DNA of 8,417 nt, from IMG/VR virus record IMGVR_UViG_2671180637_000014, positions 1-8,417 of that record. One strand, 5' to 3'. Under the pieces are notes generated by a model that worked only from the letters and a program-made list of their open reading frames with translations, was not told where the DNA came from and searched no databases. The DNA comes from a virus (lineage: Duplodnaviria; Heunggongvirae; Uroviricota; Caudoviricetes). Positions 1 to 8,417 of this stretch are shown piece by piece. The translations under genes and the position numbers were made by a program. Position 1 is the stretch's first letter. The number at the start of each line of letters is the position of its first letter.

Positions 1-1448
1 ACCTTATCAGTAAGGTGATGGGCAGTATTTCTAATCCTGAAATTCGCCGGATGGAGCTGATGAACACCATCGCCGGTATTGAGCGTTACGCCGCCGCAGA
101 GGGTGATGTGGGGATGTTTATCACGCTGACCGCGCCGTCAAAGTATCACCCGACACGTCAGGTCGGAAAAGGCGAAAGTAAAACCGTCCAGCTTAATCAC
201 GGCTGGAATGATGAGGCATTTAATCCAAAGGATGCGCAGCGATATCTCTGCCGTATCTGGAGCCTGATGCGCACGGCATTCAAGGATAATGATTTACAGG
301 TCTACGGTTTGCGAGTCGTCGAGCCACACCACGACGGAACGCCGCACTGGCATATGATGCTTTTTTGTAATCCACGCCAGCGTAACCAGATTATCGAAAT
401 CATGCGTCGCTATGCGCTCAAAGAGGATGGCGACGAAAGAGGAGCCGCGCGAAACCGTTTTCAGGCAAAACACCTTAACCGGGGCGGTGCTGCGGGGTAT
501 ATCGCGAAATACATCTCAAAAAATATCGACGGCTATGCACTGGATGGTCAGCTCGATAACGATACCGGCAGACCGCTGAAAGACACTGCCGCGGCTGTTA
601 CCGCATGGGCGTCAACGTGGCGCATTCCGCAATTTAAAACGGTTGGCCTGCCGACAATGGGGGCTTACCGTGAACTACGCAAATTGCCTCGCGGCGTCAG
701 CATTGCTGATGAGTTTGACGAACGCGTCGAGGCTGCACGCGCTGCCGCAGACAGTGGCGATTTTGCGCTGTATATCAGCGCGCAGGGTGGGGCAAATGTC
801 CCGCGCGATTGTCAGACTGTCAGGGTTGCCCGTAGCCCGTCGGATGACGTTAACGAGTATGAGGAAGAAGTCGGGAGAGTGGTCGGCATTTACGCGCCTC
901 ATCTCGGCGCGCGTCATATTCATATCACCAGAACGACGGACTGGCGCATTGTGCCGAAAGTGCCAGTCGTTGAGCCTTTGACTTTAAAAAGCGGCATCGC
1001 CGCGCCTCGGAGTCCTGTCAATAACTGTGGAAAGCTCACCGGTGGTGATACTTCGTTACCGGCTCCCACACCTTCTGAGCACGCCGCAGCAGTGCTAAAT
1101 CTGGTTGATGACGGTGTTATCGAATGGAATGACCCGGAGGTCGTGAGGACGCTCAGGGGTGCATTAAAACACGGCCTGAAAACACCAAATCGTCAGCAAA
1201 GAAACGGAAGCCCGTTAAAACCACATGAAATAGCACCGTCGGCCAGACTGACCCGGTCGGAACGATTGCAAATTACCCGTATCCGCGTTGATCTCGCTCA
1301 GAACGGTATCAGGCCGCAGCGATGGGAGCTTGAGGCGCTGGCGCGTGGCGCGACCGTAAATTATGACGGGAAACAATTCACGTATCCGGTTGCTGATGAG
1401 TGGCCGGGATTCTCCAACTTTATGGCGTTCAGTAGTGAACATTACTGA
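1..1448 (+). CDS. A: Replication initiation endonuclease (P2 gpA-like, rolling-circle HUH family); 5'-truncated by the window edge
   Basis: The reading frame is open from the window edge (no in-frame stop upstream of nt 15) to TGA at 1446-1448. It contains the HUH metal-binding motif HWHMMLF (nt 345-365) and the twin-tyrosine nicking motif GYIAKYISK (Tyr codons at 498-500 and 510-512), as in P2 gpA and phiX174-type initiators. GC-rich, enterobacterial-like codon usage. Confidence 0.88.
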   Translation, partial: LISKVMGSISNPEIRRMELMNTIAGIERYAAAEGDVGMFITLTAPSKYHPTRQVGKGESKTVQLNHGWNDEAFNPKDAQRYLCRIWSLMRTAFKDNDLQVYGLRVVEPHHDGTPHWHMMLFCNPRQRNQIIEIMRRYALKEDGDERGAARNRFQAKHLNRGGAAGYIAKYISKNIDGYALDGQLDNDTGRPLKDTAAAVTAWASTWRIPQFKTVGLPTMGAYRELRKLPRGVSIADEFDERVEAARAAADSGDFALYISAQGGANVPRDCQTVRVARSPSDDVNEYEEEVGRVVGIYAPHLGARHIHITRTTDWRIVPKVPVVEPLTLKSGIAAPRSPVNNCGKLTGGDTSLPAPTPSEHAAAVLNLVDDGVIEWNDPEVVRTLRGALKHGLKTPNRQQRNGSPLKPHEIAPSARLTRSERLQITRIRVDLAQNGIRPQRWELEALARGATVNYDGKQFTYPVADEWPGFSNFMAFSSEHY

Positions 1449-1520
1449 GAATCTTCGGTTTTTATTAGTTGTGAATAAGGGGAATAGCGTTCTGTACATA
1501 TGGGGCTATGTAATAAATAT

Positions 1521-1556
1521 AAACCGTCAGTTCATTCTGACGGTTTATATATTTTT
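1521..1556. terminator. Bidirectional intrinsic terminator between the convergent gene A and the SIR2-like gene
   Basis: Perfect 10-bp inverted repeat AAACCGTCAG (1521-1530) / CTGACGGTTT (1537-1546) with a 6-nt loop, flanked by T-rich sequence on the + strand (ATATATTTTTAT) and A/T-rich sequence on the - strand. It lies just downstream of both convergent stop codons. Confidence 0.6.
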
Positions 1557-1560
1557 ATGC

Positions 1561-3042
1561 TTAGTATGATAGAAAATCATACAGGCACAATAATTTACGG
1601 TAATGAGTATCTATTTTGTGTGATATAGAGATAAGATATTTTCTGAGTTGTGCTAAGGAAATGGTGTCATTAAGTACACAATACATGATTGTATTGGCTA
1701 CTTTATATTCTTTTGTTGTTTCTAATATCTCATCTATTGTTGTTGCATCACATCTGCACGCTTTAATTCTAGTGAGTTGATTTATTATCTTATCCAGTTG
1801 TCTGTCTTTGTATAGCTTAACGTTTTCTAATTCAGGGCATACAGAACTAAATGCGTAAATTGGAAAGTGCTCATGATTTGTGATAGTTTGTTTATTCAAA
1901 AGTGCAATGAGTTGTGCGTTAGCTTCATCGACAATTTTAAAGTAATTTTGAATCATTTCAGATTTTGTCTGGTATTCGTAGGTAACAGTTCTTTCTGAGC
2001 CTACAGCGATTACCATTTCTTCATTCCGTAATTCATCGAGGTTTTCCGTGATTTTTACCTTGATTTCACCGCCACTTTTTATTGTATTCCAGACTTTTTG
2101 TACTTTTCTTATATCCATTGCGGAAACAGGGAGAATTAAATTAGATATGGCATCGTAAACGGCTTTGTAATTGTCTGTTTTGATTTTGTTAATTCTTATA
2201 ATGGATAAACCTTCAATATTAATATCATGTTCAGAAATAGTTGTAGACATGTTCCCCTCATCATATTCAACAAGGAGAAAGTTGTCTTTTATTTTTTTTG
2301 CTAGTTCAGTATTTAGATCTACATATGAAAATATTGTCTGCAGGAGGTATTTAATATTCTTATCACTGATGCTATATCCTAAAAAAATAATGGGGTTGTG
2401 AATGAATATAGATAATAGTTGAGCACGTATTAACTCATATTTGTCATTAAAGTTATTATAATCATCAGATGTTATGATTATGTTGTTGGGGTCACTAACA
2501 CAACCGTGTATTTTATATACCGAGCCATATGGATTGCTTAGTAATATATTGTTGCCAATAAGCGGGGAGAAATCGAATAAATTTTCGATAAGTTGATCGT
2601 AATTGGTGGTAATAATTGAGCCAATATTCTTTCTTGTTTTTATTAAGCTATTAATCTCATCTCTTAAATCTTCTTTGAGAGGTGAGTCTTTTAATATTGA
2701 TGTTAGGTATATTTTGAACCGGCTAAGTTTTTTTCCATGACTCATGTTCTCGTAGAAAATATCATTGATGCTTTCAAACTTTCCGTTTCTGTCTTCGGCG
2801 AGTTTCTTATTGAAGATATTCTCTAATTTTGTTGCAAGAATGTCGTATCTGTATTCGTCACCTTCAATACTTTCCGATTTAAGATCATAATAAAATTCAG
2901 GATTGCCAGTTAAATCAACGGCAATTTTCATCAATAACCCATCCCAACTGAATGAGTTTTGCAGATATCTTAGACTAAAACCTGTACCTATAAAAAGAAC
3001 AGGGTGGTTTTTGTACTGGCTGACAAATTCTTTGATTTCCAT
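1561..3042 (-). CDS. SIR2-like (ThsA/DSR-type, SIR2_2-like) predicted NAD+-hydrolase with an uncharacterized C-terminal domain; candidate single-gene anti-phage defense protein (phage moron)
   Basis: 493-aa ORF, ATG at 3042-3040, TAA at 1563-1561, with no competing long ORF. The N-terminal half has the ordered SIR2 motif set: glycine-rich loop VLFIGTGFS (aa 15-23, nt 2974-3000), TTNYDQLIE with the predicted catalytic Asn147 (nt 2596-2610), YKIHGC with the predicted catalytic His179 (codon 2506-2508), and FLGYSISD (aa 220-227). Base composition is strongly AT-rich compared with the flanking phage genes. It sits at the gpA-cos position where P2 has tin/old. Confidence 0.8.
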   Translation of the reverse strand: MEIKEFVSQYKNHPVLFIGTGFSLRYLQNSFSWDGLLMKIAVDLTGNPEFYYDLKSESIEGDEYRYDILATKLENIFNKKLAEDRNGKFESINDIFYENMSHGKKLSRFKIYLTSILKDSPLKEDLRDEINSLIKTRKNIGSIITTNYDQLIENLFDFSPLIGNNILLSNPYGSVYKIHGCVSDPNNIIITSDDYNNFNDKYELIRAQLLSIFIHNPIIFLGYSISDKNIKYLLQTIFSYVDLNTELAKKIKDNFLLVEYDEGNMSTTISEHDINIEGLSIIRINKIKTDNYKAVYDAISNLILPVSAMDIRKVQKVWNTIKSGGEIKVKITENLDELRNEEMVIAVGSERTVTYEYQTKSEMIQNYFKIVDEANAQLIALLNKQTITNHEHFPIYAFSSVCPELENVKLYKDRQLDKIINQLTRIKACRCDATTIDEILETTKEYKVANTIMYCVLNDTISLAQLRKYLISISHKIDTHYRKLLCLYDFLSY

Positions 3043-3250
3043 ATTAATTCTCGAAGTTGATCATCGTTATCTCTATACAACCAAATAGCAGATAAAACTT
3101 CAAACAGACTTTCAAAAAGCGACATATGTTTTGGCAGAATAAGGATGAGCGCATCAGTGTCAAGAAGATTTGAGATCTTAATCTACTCAATAGGAACAAG
3201 ACGTCAGACTTAATTGTGTACTACCGGTGAAAACTGCCTGATAAAGTTGA
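3043..3250 (-). promoter_or_regulatory. Putative promoter/5' leader region of the SIR2-like gene
   Basis: AT-rich non-coding DNA immediately upstream of the ATG at 3042 on the - strand. There is a weak Shine-Dalgarno-like GAGA 7-10 nt upstream of the start, and a possible -35-like TTGAAG (plus coordinates 3098-3103), but no convincing -10 hexamer was identified by eye. Position and composition only; no transcription start site can be assigned. Confidence 0.3.
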
Positions 3251-3436
3251 ATCTACGGCATGATTCGTCGGTTTTTTATGCGATATTACCTTAGTTTCTG
3301 TTGTCCTTGGTAATACTGACGTTATTGCATTAAATTGCATGTGTTTTGATTTCATGCCCTTTGCCAACTACGTCAATACTGGTGCTGTTTCCACGTGTTT
3401 ATGCACTTGCATTAAAACCGCAACATGAAGCGGGCG

Positions 3437-3455
3437 GGCGAGGCGGGGAAAGCAC
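3437..3455. other. cos site: 19-nt cohesive-end sequence of P2-type phages
   Basis: The sequence GGCGAGGCGGGGAAAGCAC at 3437-3455 matches the P2 cohesive-end sequence as I recall it. It lies in a GC-rich block just outside the end of portal gene Q, the position expected for P2 cos. Confidence 0.75.
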
Positions 3456-3596
3456 TGCGCGCTGGCGGTGGTGCTGATTTTATTTTTTCAGCGTCTGAAC
3501 GCGCCGTGATGACGTTTAGATTGTTAGCCGGGGCGTTGGTGTGTCTGCGGGCTGTTTTGTGCGGTGGTGAGCGTGTGAGGGCGTGATGACGGGATG

Positions 3597-3619
3597 TAAA
3601 AAAGCCGCCCGCAGGCGGC
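3597..3619 (-). terminator. Intrinsic terminator downstream of portal gene Q (end of the P-Q operon)
   Basis: On the - strand: stem GCCGCC / GGCGGC (plus coordinates 3604-3609 and 3614-3619) with a 4-nt loop, followed by a run of six T's and an A (plus-strand A-run 3598-3603). It starts 5 nt after the Q stop codon. Confidence 0.65.
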
Positions 3620-3624
3620 GATGT

Positions 3625-4659
3625 TCAGCCGTTGTCAGTGTCCAGTGAGTAGTTTTTAAAGCGGATGACCTCCTGACCGAGCCAGCCGTTTATCTCGCGG
3701 ATCCTGTCCTGTAACGGGATAAGCTCATTGCGGACAAAGACCTTTGCCACTTTCTCAATATCGCCCAGCGACCCGACGTTCTCCGGCTTGCCGCCCATCA
3801 ACTGAAAGGGGATGCGGTGTGCGTCCAGCAGGTCAGCGGCGCTGGCTTTTTTGATATTAAAAAAATCGTCCTTCGTTGCCACTTCACTGAGGGGGATAAT
3901 TTTAATACCGTCGGCTTTCCCCTGTGGGGCATAGAGAAACAGATTTTTAAAGTTGTTGCGGCCTTTCGACTTGACCATGTTTTCGCGAAGCATTTCGATA
4001 TCGTTGCGATCCTGCACGGCATCGGTGACGTACATGATATATCCGGCATGAGCGCCGTTTTCGTAATACTTGCGGCGGAACAGCGTGGCCGACTCATTCA
4101 GCCAGGCAGAGTTAAGGGCGCTGAGATATTCCGGCAGGCCGTACAGCTCCTGATTAATATCCGGCTCCAGCAGGTGAAACACGGAGCCGGGCGCGAAGGC
4201 TGTCGGCTCGTTGAAGGACGGCACCCACCAGTAAACATCCTCCTCCACGCCACGGCGGGTATATTTTGCCGGTGAGGTTTCCAGTCTGATGACCTTACCG
4301 GTGGTGCTGTAACGCTTTTCCAGAAACGCATTACCGAACACCAGAAAATCCAGCACAAAGCGGCTGAAATCCTGCTGGGAAAGCCACGGATGCGGGATAA
4401 ACGTTGAAGCCAGAATATTACGTTTGACGTAAATCGGGGAGCTGTGATGCACGGCAGCACGCAGGCTTTTTGCCAGACCGGTAAAGCTGACCGGTGGCTC
4501 ATACCATCTGCCGTTACTGATGCATTCGACGTAATCCAGAATGTCACGGCGGTCGAGTACCGGCACCGGTTCGCCAAAGGTGAATGCCTCCATTTTCGGG
4601 GCGCTGGCGGTCATTTTTTTTGCCGCAGGTTGCGGTGTTTTCCCTTTTTTCTTGCTCAT
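3625..4659 (-). CDS. Q: Portal protein (P2 gpQ-like)
   Basis: 344-aa ORF, the same length as P2 gpQ. The lysine-rich N-terminus MSKKKGKTPQPAAKK and the overall sequence are recognisable as the P2-family portal. Its ATG (4659-4657) overlaps the stop codon of P by one nucleotide. High-GC phage-backbone composition. Confidence 0.93.
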   Translation of the reverse strand: MSKKKGKTPQPAAKKMTASAPKMEAFTFGEPVPVLDRRDILDYVECISNGRWYEPPVSFTGLAKSLRAAVHHSSPIYVKRNILASTFIPHPWLSQQDFSRFVLDFLVFGNAFLEKRYSTTGKVIRLETSPAKYTRRGVEEDVYWWVPSFNEPTAFAPGSVFHLLEPDINQELYGLPEYLSALNSAWLNESATLFRRKYYENGAHAGYIMYVTDAVQDRNDIEMLRENMVKSKGRNNFKNLFLYAPQGKADGIKIIPLSEVATKDDFFNIKKASAADLLDAHRIPFQLMGGKPENVGSLGDIEKVAKVFVRNELIPLQDRIREINGWLGQEVIRFKNYSLDTDNG

Positions 4660-6431
4660 CAGTAAAACTCCAGAATGGTGGATGTCAGCGGGGTGCTGAT
4701 ACCGGCGGTGAGTGGCTCATTTAACAGAGCGTGCATGGTCGCCCAGGCGAGGTCGGCGTGGCTGGCTTCCTCGCTGCGGCTGGCCTCATAGGTGGCGCTG
4801 CGTCCGCTGCTGGTCATGGTCTTGCGGATAGCCATAAACGAGCTGGTGATGTCGGTGGCGCTGACGTCATATTCCAGACAGCCACGGCGGATAACGTCTT
4901 TTGCCTTGAGCACCATTGCGGTTTTCATTTCCGGTGTGTAGCGGATGTCGCGCGCGGCGGGATAGAACGAGCGCACGAGCTGGAACACGCCGACACCGAG
5001 GCCGGTGGCATCAATACCGATGTATTCGACGTTATATTTTTCGGTGAGTTTGCGGATGGATTCCGCCTGGGTGGCAAAGTCCATGCCTTTCCACTGGTGA
5101 CGCTCAAGTATTCTGAATTTGCCACCGGCCACCACCGGCGGTGCCAGCACCACGCATCCGGCACTGTCGCCACGGTGTGACGGGTCGTAACCAATCCATA
5201 CCGGGCGGGAGCCGAACGGATTCGCGGCAAACGGCGCATAGTCTTCCCATTCTTCCAGCGTGTCGACCATGCAGCGTTGCAGCTCCTCGAACGGGAACAC
5301 CGACGCCTTGTCGTCAACAAATTCACACATGAACAGGTTTTTAAAATCGTCGGCGCTGTTTTCGCGTTTAAGCTGCTCAATGTCGAACAATGTGCAGCCG
5401 CCTTTCAGGGCGTCCTCAATGGTGACAATCTGCCGCCACTGGCCGTCCGCACAGAGAAGCCCACCGGCAAGGGCGTTATGACTGACGTCGATTTCCACGC
5501 GTTCGGCGGCGCTGGCGCGTCCCCGGTTGAACAGTTCCCCCGACCAGAACGGGTAGGCGTCGTGCGCCAGCGTGGACGGGGTGGAGAAATAGGTCGAGCG
5601 CAGGTGACTCTGTGAGGCCATACCTGATGCCACCTTACGCAGTACCTGAAAATTCGGGATCCAGAAAATCTCATCGACGTACAGGTCGCCGTTATGGCTC
5701 TGTGCGGTGTTGGAGTTGGTGCCGAGAAAAATCAGTTTTGCACCGTTATTGCCCAGGACAATCGGGTCACCGGTCAGGTCAACGTCAACCAGCCGGGCAA
5801 AGGCAATGATGTATTCGCGGAACACATACGCCTGCGTTTTACTGGCCGACAGAAAAATCTGGTTATGGCCGGTTTTCAGGGCGCGCAGCAGCGCCTCGCG
5901 GGAAAAATAAAACGTCGCGCCAATCTGGCGGGATTTCAGGATATCGCGGATGCGGTGCTCAAGCCCGGCACGATACCAGTGCAACTGATAGTCGAAAGAC
6001 TGCTCAAAGAAAATCTGCTCCAGCTTTTCGATAGCCTCGTCACTGAAAAAATTCTTTTTCGGTTTGCGCCGCCCGCCTTTGTTGCGGTTAGCGATGTTCG
6101 GATTAAGGTCTGCCTCGTTGCCGGTCTGGCTGTAGCGGTTGACCCGTGCCAGTCGTTCAATCTGGCGTCCGAGCAGGTCAATTTCCTTGAAGTCACCGCC
6201 GGTTTTCTGCGGTTTGATGATGAGCTGGGTCAGCCGCGCTTCCAGACTCATTTCGACACGGCTGATGGGGGCAACACTGTCCCAGCCGTCGCGCTGTTTC
6301 CAGCTCTGCACCGTCGGGCGTTTCATCTGCAACATGGCGGCAATCTGCGGCACGGAAAACCCCTGCCAGTACAGCAGCGCCGCCTGACGACGCGGGTCGT
6401 GTAAAAGAGTGGTGTCTGTGGTGATGGTCAT
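4659..6431 (-). CDS. P: Terminase large (ATPase/endonuclease) subunit (P2 gpP-like)
   Basis: Long - strand ORF. The start is assigned to the ATG at 6431-6429 (protein begins MTITTDTTLLHDP, 590 aa, the P2 gpP length) rather than the upstream ATG at 6461, because a GAGG Shine-Dalgarno lies 6-9 nt upstream of 6431. The TGA stop at 4661-4659 overlaps the Q start. The sequence is recognisable as the P2-family terminase ATPase subunit. Confidence 0.93.
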   Translation of the reverse strand: MTITTDTTLLHDPRRQAALLYWQGFSVPQIAAMLQMKRPTVQSWKQRDGWDSVAPISRVEMSLEARLTQLIIKPQKTGGDFKEIDLLGRQIERLARVNRYSQTGNEADLNPNIANRNKGGRRKPKKNFFSDEAIEKLEQIFFEQSFDYQLHWYRAGLEHRIRDILKSRQIGATFYFSREALLRALKTGHNQIFLSASKTQAYVFREYIIAFARLVDVDLTGDPIVLGNNGAKLIFLGTNSNTAQSHNGDLYVDEIFWIPNFQVLRKVASGMASQSHLRSTYFSTPSTLAHDAYPFWSGELFNRGRASAAERVEIDVSHNALAGGLLCADGQWRQIVTIEDALKGGCTLFDIEQLKRENSADDFKNLFMCEFVDDKASVFPFEELQRCMVDTLEEWEDYAPFAANPFGSRPVWIGYDPSHRGDSAGCVVLAPPVVAGGKFRILERHQWKGMDFATQAESIRKLTEKYNVEYIGIDATGLGVGVFQLVRSFYPAARDIRYTPEMKTAMVLKAKDVIRRGCLEYDVSATDITSSFMAIRKTMTSSGRSATYEASRSEEASHADLAWATMHALLNEPLTAGISTPLTSTILEFY

Positions 6432-6604
6432 GAATACCTCGCCGTGATGAATACACGGCAAGGCTACTGAGTCGCGCCCCGCGATTCGCTAAGGTGCTGT
6501 TGTGTCAGTGATAAGCCATCCGGGACTGATGGCGGAGGATGCGCATCGTCGGGAAACTGATGCCGACATGTGACTCCTCTAATCACTATTCAGGACTCCT
6601 GACA
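6432..6604. promoter_or_regulatory. Divergent intergenic region between P and O; expected site of the divergent late promoters of P2-like phages
   Basis: A 173-bp non-coding gap between the divergently transcribed P (-) and O (+) genes. In P2 this gap holds the Ogr-activated late promoters PP and PO. I could not find an exact TGT-N12-ACA activator element by eye, so the call rests on gene arrangement alone. Confidence 0.45.
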
Positions 6605-7459
6605 ATGGCAAAAAAAGCATCAAAATTCTTTCGTATCGGCGTTGAGGGTGACACCTGTGACGGGCGTGTCATCAGTGCGCAGGATATTCAGGAAATGGCC
6701 GAAACCTTTGACCCGCGAGTCTATGGTTGCCGCATTAACCTGGAACATCTGCGCGGCATCCTGCCTGACGGTATTTTTAAGCGTTATGGCGATGTGGTCG
6801 AACTGAAGGCCGAAAAGATTGACGATGATTCGGCGCTGAAAGGCAAATGGGCGCTGTTTGCGAAAATCACACCGACCGATGACCTTATCGCGATGAACAA
6901 GGCCGCGCAGAAGGTCTACACCTCAATGGAAATTCAGCCGAACTTTGCCAATACAGGCAAATGTTATCTGGTGGGTCTGGCCGTCACCGATGACCCGGCA
7001 AGCCTCGGCACGGAATACCTGGAATTCTGCCGCACGGCAAAACATAACCCTCTGAACCGCTTCAAATTAAGCCCTGAAAACCTGATTTCAGTGGCAACGC
7101 CTGTTGAGCTGGAATTTGAAGACCTGCCTGAAACCGTGTTCACCGCCCTGACCGAAAAGGTGAAATCCATTTTTGGCCGCAAACAGGCGAGCGATGACGC
7201 CCGTCTGAATGACGTGCATGAAGCGGTGACCGCTGTCGCTGAACATGTGCAGGAAAAACTGAGCGCCACTGAGCAGCGCCTCGCTGAGATGGAAACCGCC
7301 TTTTCCGCACTTAAGCAGGATGTGACTGACAGGGCGGATGAAACCAGCCAGGCATTCACCCGCCTGAAAAACAGCCTCGACCACACCGAAAGTCTGACCC
7401 AGCAGCGCCGCAGCAAGGCCACCGGCGGTGGCGGTGACGCCCTGATGACGAACTGCTGA
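6605..7459 (+). CDS. O: Capsid scaffolding protein (P2 gpO-like)
   Basis: The start is assigned to the ATG at 6605 (MAKKASKFFRIGVEGDTCDGRV...), giving 284 aa, the P2 gpO length. An AGGA Shine-Dalgarno lies at 6592-6595. The ORF-track start at 6539 is an in-frame upstream extension with no ribosome-binding site. TGA stop at 7457-7459. Confidence 0.92.
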   Translation: MAKKASKFFRIGVEGDTCDGRVISAQDIQEMAETFDPRVYGCRINLEHLRGILPDGIFKRYGDVVELKAEKIDDDSALKGKWALFAKITPTDDLIAMNKAAQKVYTSMEIQPNFANTGKCYLVGLAVTDDPASLGTEYLEFCRTAKHNPLNRFKLSPENLISVATPVELEFEDLPETVFTALTEKVKSIFGRKQASDDARLNDVHEAVTAVAEHVQEKLSATEQRLAEMETAFSALKQDVTDRADETSQAFTRLKNSLDHTESLTQQRRSKATGGGGDALMTNC

Positions 7460-7517
7460 CCGGCGTCAGTCAGTCCGGGAAAACCTTCACGATTAACCCT
7501 TAATTTCAGGAAAAACT

Positions 7518-8417
7518 ATGCGCCAGGAAACCCGCTTTAAATTTAATGCCTACCTGTCCCGTGTTGCCGAACTGAACGGCATCGACGCCGGTGATGTGTC
7601 GAAAAAATTCACCGTTGAACCGTCGGTCACCCAGACCCTGATGAACACCATGCAGGAGTCCTCTGATTTTCTGACCCGCATCAACATTGTGCCGGTCAGC
7701 GAAATGAAAGGGGAAAAAATTGGTATTGGTGTCACCGGCTCCATCGCCAGCACCACCGACACCGCCGGTGGCACCGAGCGTCAGCCGAAGGACTTCTCGA
7801 AGCTGGCGTCAAACAAGTACGAATGCGACCAGATTAACTTCGATTTTTATATCCGCTACAAAACGCTGGACCTGTGGGCGCGTTATCAGGATTTCCAGCT
7901 CCGTATCCGTAACGCCATTATCAAACGCCAGTCCCTTGATTTCATCATGGCCGGTTTTAACGGCGTGAAGCGTGCCGAAACCTCTGACCGCAGCAGCAAT
8001 CCGATGCTGCAGGATGTGGCGGTCGGCTGGCTGCAGAAATACCGCAATGAAGCCCCGGCGCGCGTGATGAGCAAGGTCACTGACGAGGAAGGTCACACGA
8101 CCTCTGAGGTCATCCGCGTGGGTAAGGGCGGTGATTATGCCAGCCTCGATGCACTGGTGATGGATGCGACCAACAACCTGATTGAGCCGTGGTATCAGGA
8201 AGACCCTGACCTTGTGGTGATTGTGGGGCGTCAGCTACTGGCGGACAAGTATTTCCCCATCGTCAACAAGGAGCAGGACAACAGCGAGATGCTGGCCGCT
8301 GACGTCATCATCAGCCAGAAACGCATCGGCAACCTGCCAGCGGTACGCGTCCCGTACTTCCCGGCGGATGCGATGCTCATCACGAAGCTGGAAAACCTGT
8401 CCATCTACTACATGGAT
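7518..8417 (+). CDS. N: Major capsid protein (P2 gpN-like); 3'-truncated by the window edge
   Basis: ATG at 7518 preceded by AGGA (7507-7510). The frame is open for 300 codons to the end of the window. The translation MRQETRFKFNAYLSRVAELNGIDAGD... is recognisable as the P2-family major capsid protein and follows O in the conserved O-N order. Confidence 0.92.
   Translation, partial: MRQETRFKFNAYLSRVAELNGIDAGDVSKKFTVEPSVTQTLMNTMQESSDFLTRINIVPVSEMKGEKIGIGVTGSIASTTDTAGGTERQPKDFSKLASNKYECDQINFDFYIRYKTLDLWARYQDFQLRIRNAIIKRQSLDFIMAGFNGVKRAETSDRSSNPMLQDVAVGWLQKYRNEAPARVMSKVTDEEGHTTSEVIRVGKGGDYASLDALVMDATNNLIEPWYQEDPDLVVIVGRQLLADKYFPIVNKEQDNSEMLAADVIISQKRIGNLPAVRVPYFPADAMLITKLENLSIYYMD

Follow-up and report, generated by a model that had tools for sequence, protein, structure and literature searches.

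Which signal would switch on a SIR2 protein that carries none of the sensor domains of the better known SIR2 defence systems? The question is raised by a gene found in an 8,417-nucleotide stretch of a Caudoviricetes record (IMG/VR IMGVR_UViG_2671180637_000014, positions 1 to 8,417), hereafter called the window. The gene encodes a SIR2-family protein of 493 amino acids (aa), and a first-pass annotation, made from the letters alone, had singled out its C-terminal half (positions 1564-2295 of the window, corresponding exactly to aa 250-493) as an uncharacterised domain with a possible sensor function. In ThsA, the SLOG domain senses a cyclic ADP-ribose isomer, and in DSR2 the HEAT-like repeats sense a phage tail tube protein. 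For the domain described here, referred to as the tail, no relative was detected among the families of Pfam and NCBIfam or among the sequences and folds of the PDB. We give about an even chance to the reading in which the protein is a single-chain, prophage-borne candidate abortive-infection system, where a ThsA-type SIR2 NAD+ hydrolase (NADase) is fused to a helical domain that takes the place of SLOG or of the DSR2 repeats.

The SIR2 domain and the limits of the tail

Hundreds of full-length homologues were found for the open reading frame (ORF), which is genuine and under constraint. The Pfam SIR2_2 model aligns with aa 142-239 (E 3e-22) and the PADLOC ThsA1 model with aa 127-301, and the nearest solved proteins by sequence are ThsA structures (6lhx, E 1.3e-8, with aa 116-299 aligned to aa 83-273 of ThsA; also 7uxt and 8bto). 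The residues aligned with N112 and H152 of ThsA, the catalytic pair of that protein, are intact (N147 and H179, Table 1), and an N-terminal GxGxS motif is likewise invariant in the 64 homologues compared. The Zn-binding Cys4 module (CxxC...CxxC) of canonical sirtuin deacylases is absent, the six cysteines of the protein being scattered.

In a full-length AlphaFold model, with a predicted local distance difference test (pLDDT) score of 75, the strands and helix of the SIR2 domain reach residue 300. All the neighbours of this model retrieved by Foldseek are defence NADases, namely DSR2, ThsA, KomC, Avs5, SPARSA and SIR2/HerA. Since the similarity to ThsA extends to aa 299-301, and the modelled SIR2 elements to aa 300, the separate C-terminal domain corresponds to about aa 301-493; the boundary proposed in the first-pass annotation, at about aa 250, was too early by some 50 residues.

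The tail alone was modelled by AlphaFold from a 100-sequence alignment (pLDDT 80), and folds in the prediction into some nine bundled helices; ahead of these lie a helix of lower confidence and two short strands. Pfam and NCBIfam were searched with this tail alone and with 27 tails of the family: NCBIfam gave no match, and Pfam only inconsistent ones below threshold. These (Big_3, DCX and DB_JBP1, E 0.04 to 0.25), together with UvrA and SRB7 among PDB sequences, were discarded as sub-threshold and differing from one family member to another. A tail profile compared with 177,635 distinct PDB sequences gave nothing significant (best E 0.18), and no ThsA even at E 10. The tail model was compared by Foldseek with solved structures, 350,542 PDB chains in all, and no fold was matched (best E 2.9). 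A motif scan of the protein detected no Walker A motif, no PGGxGTxxE or GGxGT motif of the LOG/SLOG type and no CxxC. The earlier description of an uncharacterised C-terminal part, devoid of SLOG, TIR or P-loop features and specifically of a Walker A motif and of the SLOG glycine signature, is therefore borne out.

The protein resembles ThsA of type I Thoeris (6lhx, 8bto, 7uxt) in SIR2 subtype, in its catalytic Asn and His, in the effector-plus-regulator layout and in length (493 against 476 aa). These likenesses, together with a conserved GG followed by short strands at aa 324-348, would fit an orphan ThsA with a highly divergent SLOG/STALD domain. The point at which ThsA similarity ends, the failure to recover ThsA with the tail profile, the helical model and the Foldseek result all speak against such a tail, which was rejected; the explanation is largely refuted and keeps hardly any probability. 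Unlike the ThsA locus, the window holds no thsB (TIR) gene adjacent to the SIR2 gene, and none recurs in at least 80 related loci; signalling by glycocyclic ADP-ribose (gcADPR) is presumably not used here.

DSR2 (8wkn and others) is also a single-gene protein with N-terminal SIR2 and helical C-terminal part, and is the best Foldseek match of the full-length model (E 1e-6). It offers functionally the best analogy, since a single chain there detects a phage protein without an intermediary. It differs in size, with about 1000 aa and a long HEAT-like repeat region against a tail of about 190 aa. The TM-score of the full-length model rises only from 0.31, for the SIR2 domain of DSR2 alone, to 0.33, for the whole of DSR2, so that the tail adds almost nothing to the likeness. 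A DSR2-like repeat tail was consequently rejected, the tail alone giving no DSR2 match and PADLOC no DSR match. In its layout the protein is thus like both ThsA and DSR2, and is a member of neither.

SIR2-HerA, KomBC, Avs5 and SPARSA have the same SIR2 NADase fold and are structural neighbours, but sense through a separate protein or through a STAND or prokaryotic Argonaute (pAgo) module; such partners and domains are absent here, and no HerA-like ATPase gene is present in the window or in the related loci. AbiH, a lactococcal single-gene abortive-infection protein with a sirtuin-like fold, has in common a one-protein SIR2-like gene on a mobile element; no match of the 493-aa protein to an AbiH family was obtained in Pfam (E up to 1) or PADLOC.

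Two compositional features listed in the first-pass annotation did not hold up as marks of the tail. The cysteine pair of the ACRCD segment is present (C429-R-C431) and is the sole pair in the protein. It is not a family feature, C429 being found in 53 of 91 sequences and C431 being mostly replaced by N, S or G; a role in Zn binding or redox chemistry was rejected on this ground. The noted richness in Lys and Ile does not distinguish the tail (K 8.8%, I 10.9%) from the SIR2 part (K 8.3%, I 13.0%), and results from the AT bias of the whole gene, which has 31% GC. Across the family, the net charge of the tail lies close to zero or is slightly negative (median -2.5), which makes a nucleic-acid-binding tail unlikely.

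Table 1. Position of the SIR2-plus-tail gene, its domains and the surrounding elements within the window
Feature	Position	Strand	Remarks
SIR2-family ORF, complete, 493 aa plus stop	1561-3042	-	PADLOC PDC-S25 / PHROG 2695
ThsA-type SIR2 NADase domain (predicted), aa 1-300	2143-3042	-	Pfam, PADLOC, PDB alignment, Foldseek
N147 codon (TTNYD motif)	2602-2604	-	aligned with ThsA N112; invariant in 64 homologues
H179 codon (YKIHG motif)	2506-2508	-	aligned with ThsA H152; invariant in 64 homologues
Family-specific C-terminal domain, aa 301-493	1564-2142	-	
Proximal segment, aa 301-358, highly conserved	1969-2142	-	LPxSAMDxRKVQ, G324-G325, N340, G348, Y355; low-confidence model with one helix and short strands
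Helical bundle, aa 359-493	1564-1968	-	pLDDT 80-95; family-wide invariants Y367/F368, P394, Q415, Y488-D489
Fastest-evolving stretch, aa 405-478	1609-1830	-	contains the non-conserved CRC, 429-431
P2 gene A (replication endonuclease), 3' part	15-1448	+	left border of hotspot
14-bp palindromic hairpin between the convergent gpA and SIR2 gene ends	1517-1550		terminator-like on both strands
Promoter-like TTGACA-16 nt-TATTCT, about 95 nt upstream of the SIR2 ATG	3136-3163	-	10/12 consensus matches
P2 cos 19-mer GGCGAGGCGGGGAAAGCAC (cosL)	3437-3455	+	exact match to P2 cosL; right border of cargo region
Hairpin plus T-run directly past the gene Q stop	3604-3619	-	corresponds to the annotated P2 tQ terminator
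gpQ portal gene	3625-4659	-	right flank of hotspot

Fusion to SIR2 and selective constraint

A HMMER search with the tail profile through 1.84 billion representative proteins returned 185 matches at E <= 0.001, and every full-length one is about 500 aa long, with the domain at about 290-500; the ten most divergent of the full-length matches all carry an N-terminal SIR2_2 domain. A second profile, built from the most divergent tails, gave 5 matches, all in the same family. Candidate stand-alone "tail-only" proteins proved to stem from genes whose calls had been split or truncated, with a SIR2 fragment directly upstream, and the apparent number of such proteins in the databases is inflated accordingly. 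The tail is thus tied to SIR2 in an obligate fusion. Split calls, in which a SIR2_2 fragment is followed by a tail ORF, were observed in a Mycoplasmatales metagenome-assembled genome (locus L096, positions 931-2424) and in locus L098 (2223-3750); in the former, the split is probably due to UGA being read as Trp under genetic code 4.

Within the core family, the tail is conserved at L304-P-x-S-A-M-D-x-R-K-V-Q315, G324-G325, V329, N340, G348 and Y355 and, further on, at Y367-F368, E373, N375, F393-P394, K412, Q415, K418, L470, T479, Y481-R482, C486 and Y488-D489. The proximal segment reaches the same degree of conservation as the catalytic core. The most divergent subfamilies keep only Y296, Y367/F368, P394, Q415 and Y488-D489. 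The lowest column identity in the protein is found at aa 421-480 (0.38-0.46); in the SIR2 part, aa 41-80 are relatively variable (0.56-0.59).

Some of these positions bear on the nature of the trigger. Many polar tail residues are invariant across phyla in the core family (D310, R312, Q315, N340, E373, N375, Q415 and D489), as would be expected of a pocket if the tail were a small-molecule receptor, analogous to SLOG in function and structurally unrelated to it, binding a nucleotide-derived signal made elsewhere or by a phage enzyme. The SIR2 domain is by sequence nearest to ThsA, a ligand-gated protein, and the structural neighbours include the SIR2 protein of KomBC, a system that dITP (deoxyinosine triphosphate) switches on. 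However, most of the "invariant" residues change in the divergent subfamilies, where only Y367/F368, P394, Q415 and Y488-D489 persist in the tail. Moreover, neither a nucleotide-binding motif nor a Rossmann-like fold is predicted, no signal-producing partner is conserved in 80 loci and no TIR recurs there. A receptor of this kind is regarded by us as quite unlikely.

Codon comparisons were made between the gene of the window and five relatives. Against the relative of locus L092, whose protein is 91% identical, the ratio of nonsynonymous to synonymous substitution rates (dN/dS) was 0.027 for the SIR2 domain (aa 1-300), 0.031 for the proximal tail, taken here as aa 301-404, and 0.067 for aa 405-478. 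Synonymous sites are saturated even in this comparison, and with more distant relatives the sole other estimable values for aa 405-478 were 0.15 and 0.24; the dN of this region is 2.4-10 times that of the proximal tail. The strong purifying constraint indicates that the tail is clearly functional. A dispensable C-terminus, the outcome that the first-pass annotation had named as contrary to its proposal, is not what the sequences suggest: the tail is constrained like the SIR2 domain and never separated from it. Positive selection in aa 405-478 is unsupported at the level of the region (dN/dS 0.07-0.24), although the test is weak because of the saturated synonymous sites.

The distribution of variable and conserved segments was also considered in relation to a tail that serves for oligomerisation or auto-inhibition, the trigger being sensed elsewhere, for instance by the variable helical SIR2 insertion at aa 41-135. 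Related effectors do switch by assembly (ThsA, KomBC and Avs5 filaments and DSR2 tetramers are among the Foldseek matches), and a proximal tail as conserved as the catalytic core is what an intramolecular or inter-subunit interface would show; the relative variability of aa 41-80 also fits. On the other hand, the fastest-evolving segment of the protein (aa 421-480) sits in the tail, and for a module of structural use alone there would be no need of some 190 residues, maintained across phyla and absent from every other protein. This role of the tail is considered unlikely.

Genomic setting and previous records of the family

The window covers the late-gene/replication junction of a P2-like prophage, from the 3' part of gene A through gene Q, the terminase gene P and the scaffold gene O to the start of the capsid gene. 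The SIR2 gene is the sole long ORF in the stretch between gene A and cos, which has a GC content of 30-35%, against 52-58% in the flanks. Other P2-like phages align to the window except for this low-GC stretch (76-77% of the window covered, by two separate blocks). In 5 complete E. coli genomes this gene, 99.0% identical in DNA, is found at the same P2-like prophage site, where it is annotated as "SIR2 family protein". The gpA-gpQ interval by cos in P2 is a hotspot of anti-phage systems (Rousset et al. 2022, PMC9122126), and the arrangement seen here corresponds to it, with variable cargo lying between the replication gene A and the cos/portal gene Q. As the cos copy adjoins the SIR2 cargo, the latter would lie at the right end of the packaged linear genome.

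The promoter-like site and the hairpin that bracket the SIR2 gene (Table 1) are consistent with an autonomous transcription unit; the count of promoter-like sites in the region is not above chance, and both elements are to be read as consensus matches only. A predicted 45-aa ORF lies in another frame of the minus strand (positions 2988-3125), overlapping the start and 5' leader of the SIR2 gene.

The relatives belong to Enterobacterales, Aeromonas, Vibrio, Neisseria, Pseudomonas, Bacteroidota, Bacillota, Desulfobacterota, Campylobacterota and other groups, and their occurrence is sparse and patchy, genomes of 185,579 species having yielded 133 stretches. ORFs were called in 80 loci and the neighbours were clustered. 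Even the most frequent neighbour family reaches at most 6 of the 80, and no TIR/ThsB, HerA or other signalling partner recurs; the gene is a single-gene system. The commonest neighbours are the HsdM, HsdR and HsdS genes of type I restriction-modification (R-M) systems, serine recombinases, a relaxase, an integrase and a YgjP-like peptidase.

Homologues beside or inside type I R-M operons (HsdR, HsdM, HsdS) were observed in several loci (L097, positions 96-3872; L035, L048 and L066). The gene also travels as cargo in no fewer than three mobile contexts besides the P2-like one. In Klebsiella prophages (L008-L011) and in a prophage of E. coli O21 (L093, GCA_012227225.1), the SIR2-plus-tail gene lies between a single-stranded-DNA-binding gene and a DNA polymerase A gene, and SNF2 genes are also found. 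The E. coli O21 prophage contains, after the polymerase gene and downstream of a SIR2 homologue 83% identical to ours, a 252-aa CAP12-PCTIR_TIR protein (positions 6691-7449). It has no relative in the other approximately 100 loci and therefore looks like an independent cargo gene; a conserved partner gene, or a hidden Thoeris system, was rejected, this CAP12-type TIR two genes downstream being a one-off. In a lambdoid Cronobacter prophage (L095) the gene is located between gene P and the nin region (RusA/Q), and in a Bacillota mobile island (L004-L007) beside a 993-aa reverse transcriptase, a HATPase_c_4 protein and recombinases. Distant full-length homologues (28% identity), annotated as hypothetical, are encoded by Bacillus phage phBC6A51 and Mycolicibacterium phage J1.

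The family already figures in catalogues of defence candidates, and holds candidate status only. The PADLOC model PDC-S25 (PDLC04968) matches aa 2-493 with E 8e-157, and the tail alone with E 4e-54; its single-gene definition agrees with the locus. PHROG 2695, annotated as "unknown function", matches the full length (E 2.6e-155). A 99%-identical protein, WP_021514374, an accession taken from the annotation of the matching E. coli DNA, is listed as one-gene "SIR2_2" cargo in Table S5A of Rousset et al. 2022 (PMC9122126), and is not among the systems experimentally tested there. The PDC set comprises 145 "guilt-by-embedding" candidates, put forward because their members sit within BREX, DISARM or type I R-M loci (Payne et al., preprint), and the R-M adjacency reported above agrees with this origin of the PDC-S25 model. 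Besides that preprint, one paper was found in the literature searched that names PDC-S25, listing it as a PADLOC prediction in one strain. The novelty suggested by the first-pass annotation has to be toned down, since the full-length family, with its tail, is present in all three of these records.

The genomic setting also bears on a function outside defence, in which the protein would be a prophage ADP-ribosyltransferase or deacylase that modifies a target of the host or of a phage for the benefit of the prophage, its substrate being chosen by the tail. Transfer of ADP-ribose to macromolecules is within the reach of SIR2 domains, other roles have been proposed for phage sirtuins, and no anti-phage phenotype of the family was found in the literature. 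Yet the gene sits in a documented defence hotspot, is found by type I R-M systems elsewhere and matches a defence-candidate model; its patchy distribution across phyla is driven by horizontal transfer, its nearest relatives are all defence NADases and the Zn-binding Cys4 module is lacking. We hold such an enzyme to be improbable.

A candidate single-chain abortive-infection protein

Hotspot location, SIR2 relatives among defence NADases, low GC, absence of a partner and constraint together suggest the abortive-infection reading introduced at the outset. What we infer from these data is that the protein acts against phages, that it is an NADase, that its tail is the sensor, and what kind of trigger it responds to, the sensor role following the domain logic of ThsA and DSR2; by this analogy, a tail acting as infection sensor is plausible. 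In the lysogen, the SIR2 protein would be made from its own promoter and kept inactive. Upon infection, the helical bundle would recognise a product of the incoming phage, which is most likely to be a protein; the candidate recognition surface is aa 405-478. The proximal segment (LPxSAMDxRKVQ ... GG) and the C-terminal YD motif would relay binding to the SIR2 domain, and the probable means is a shift in oligomeric state like that of ThsA, DSR2, KomBC and Avs5; NAD+ would then be hydrolysed and phage replication would stall. A further step, by which the tail (aa 301-493) would be a new phage-sensing module, with a fold not among solved structures, and would define a widespread, self-contained SIR2 defence family with a trigger and an activation route distinct from those of Thoeris (a signal molecule) and DSR2 (the tail tube, bound by HEAT-like repeats), is put forward as a tentative possibility.

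Several observations weigh against the abortive-infection reading. The invariant polar residues might just as well surround a pocket for a small molecule, and the dN/dS of aa 405-478 is well below 1, with no positive evidence of an arms race. As the fold comparison covers solved structures, the tail may match a fold that is unsolved and nonetheless annotated. The model has a pLDDT below 50 in the two most conserved loops, namely the SIR2 active-site loop (aa 159-181, positions 2500-2568 of the window) and the proximal tail (aa 306-356, positions 1975-2127); with both poorly modelled, a structural view of the communication between domains is missing. It may be speculated that these loops are ordered solely in an oligomer or in a bound state. 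Finally, the searched literature yielded catalogue entries and no functional study of the SIR2-plus-tail family, and the SIR2 gene cloned by Rousset et al. (pFR88), from a P4 satellite, appears to encode another protein, its N-terminal sequence being different when compared by eye.

Bacterial immunity makes repeated use of SIR2 NADases as effectors, which have human relatives in FAM118A/B, and the systems differ in the module that decides when SIR2 fires. The architecture of a SIR2 effector with a variable C-terminal regulator is already known, as is the genomic hotspot, and no new principle is involved; the SIR2-plus-tail gene is of interest less as a surprise than as a compact gene well suited to experiments. 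Its tail of about 190 residues recurs across Pseudomonadota, Bacteroidota, Bacillota and other phyla, and in several types of prophage. Identification of the trigger would add an entry to the short list of SIR2 gating mechanisms, and PDC-S25 would become a characterised system. If the tail were indeed a new sensing module, this compact single-chain protein would provide an unusually tractable model of a minimal sensor that gates a SIR2 NADase.

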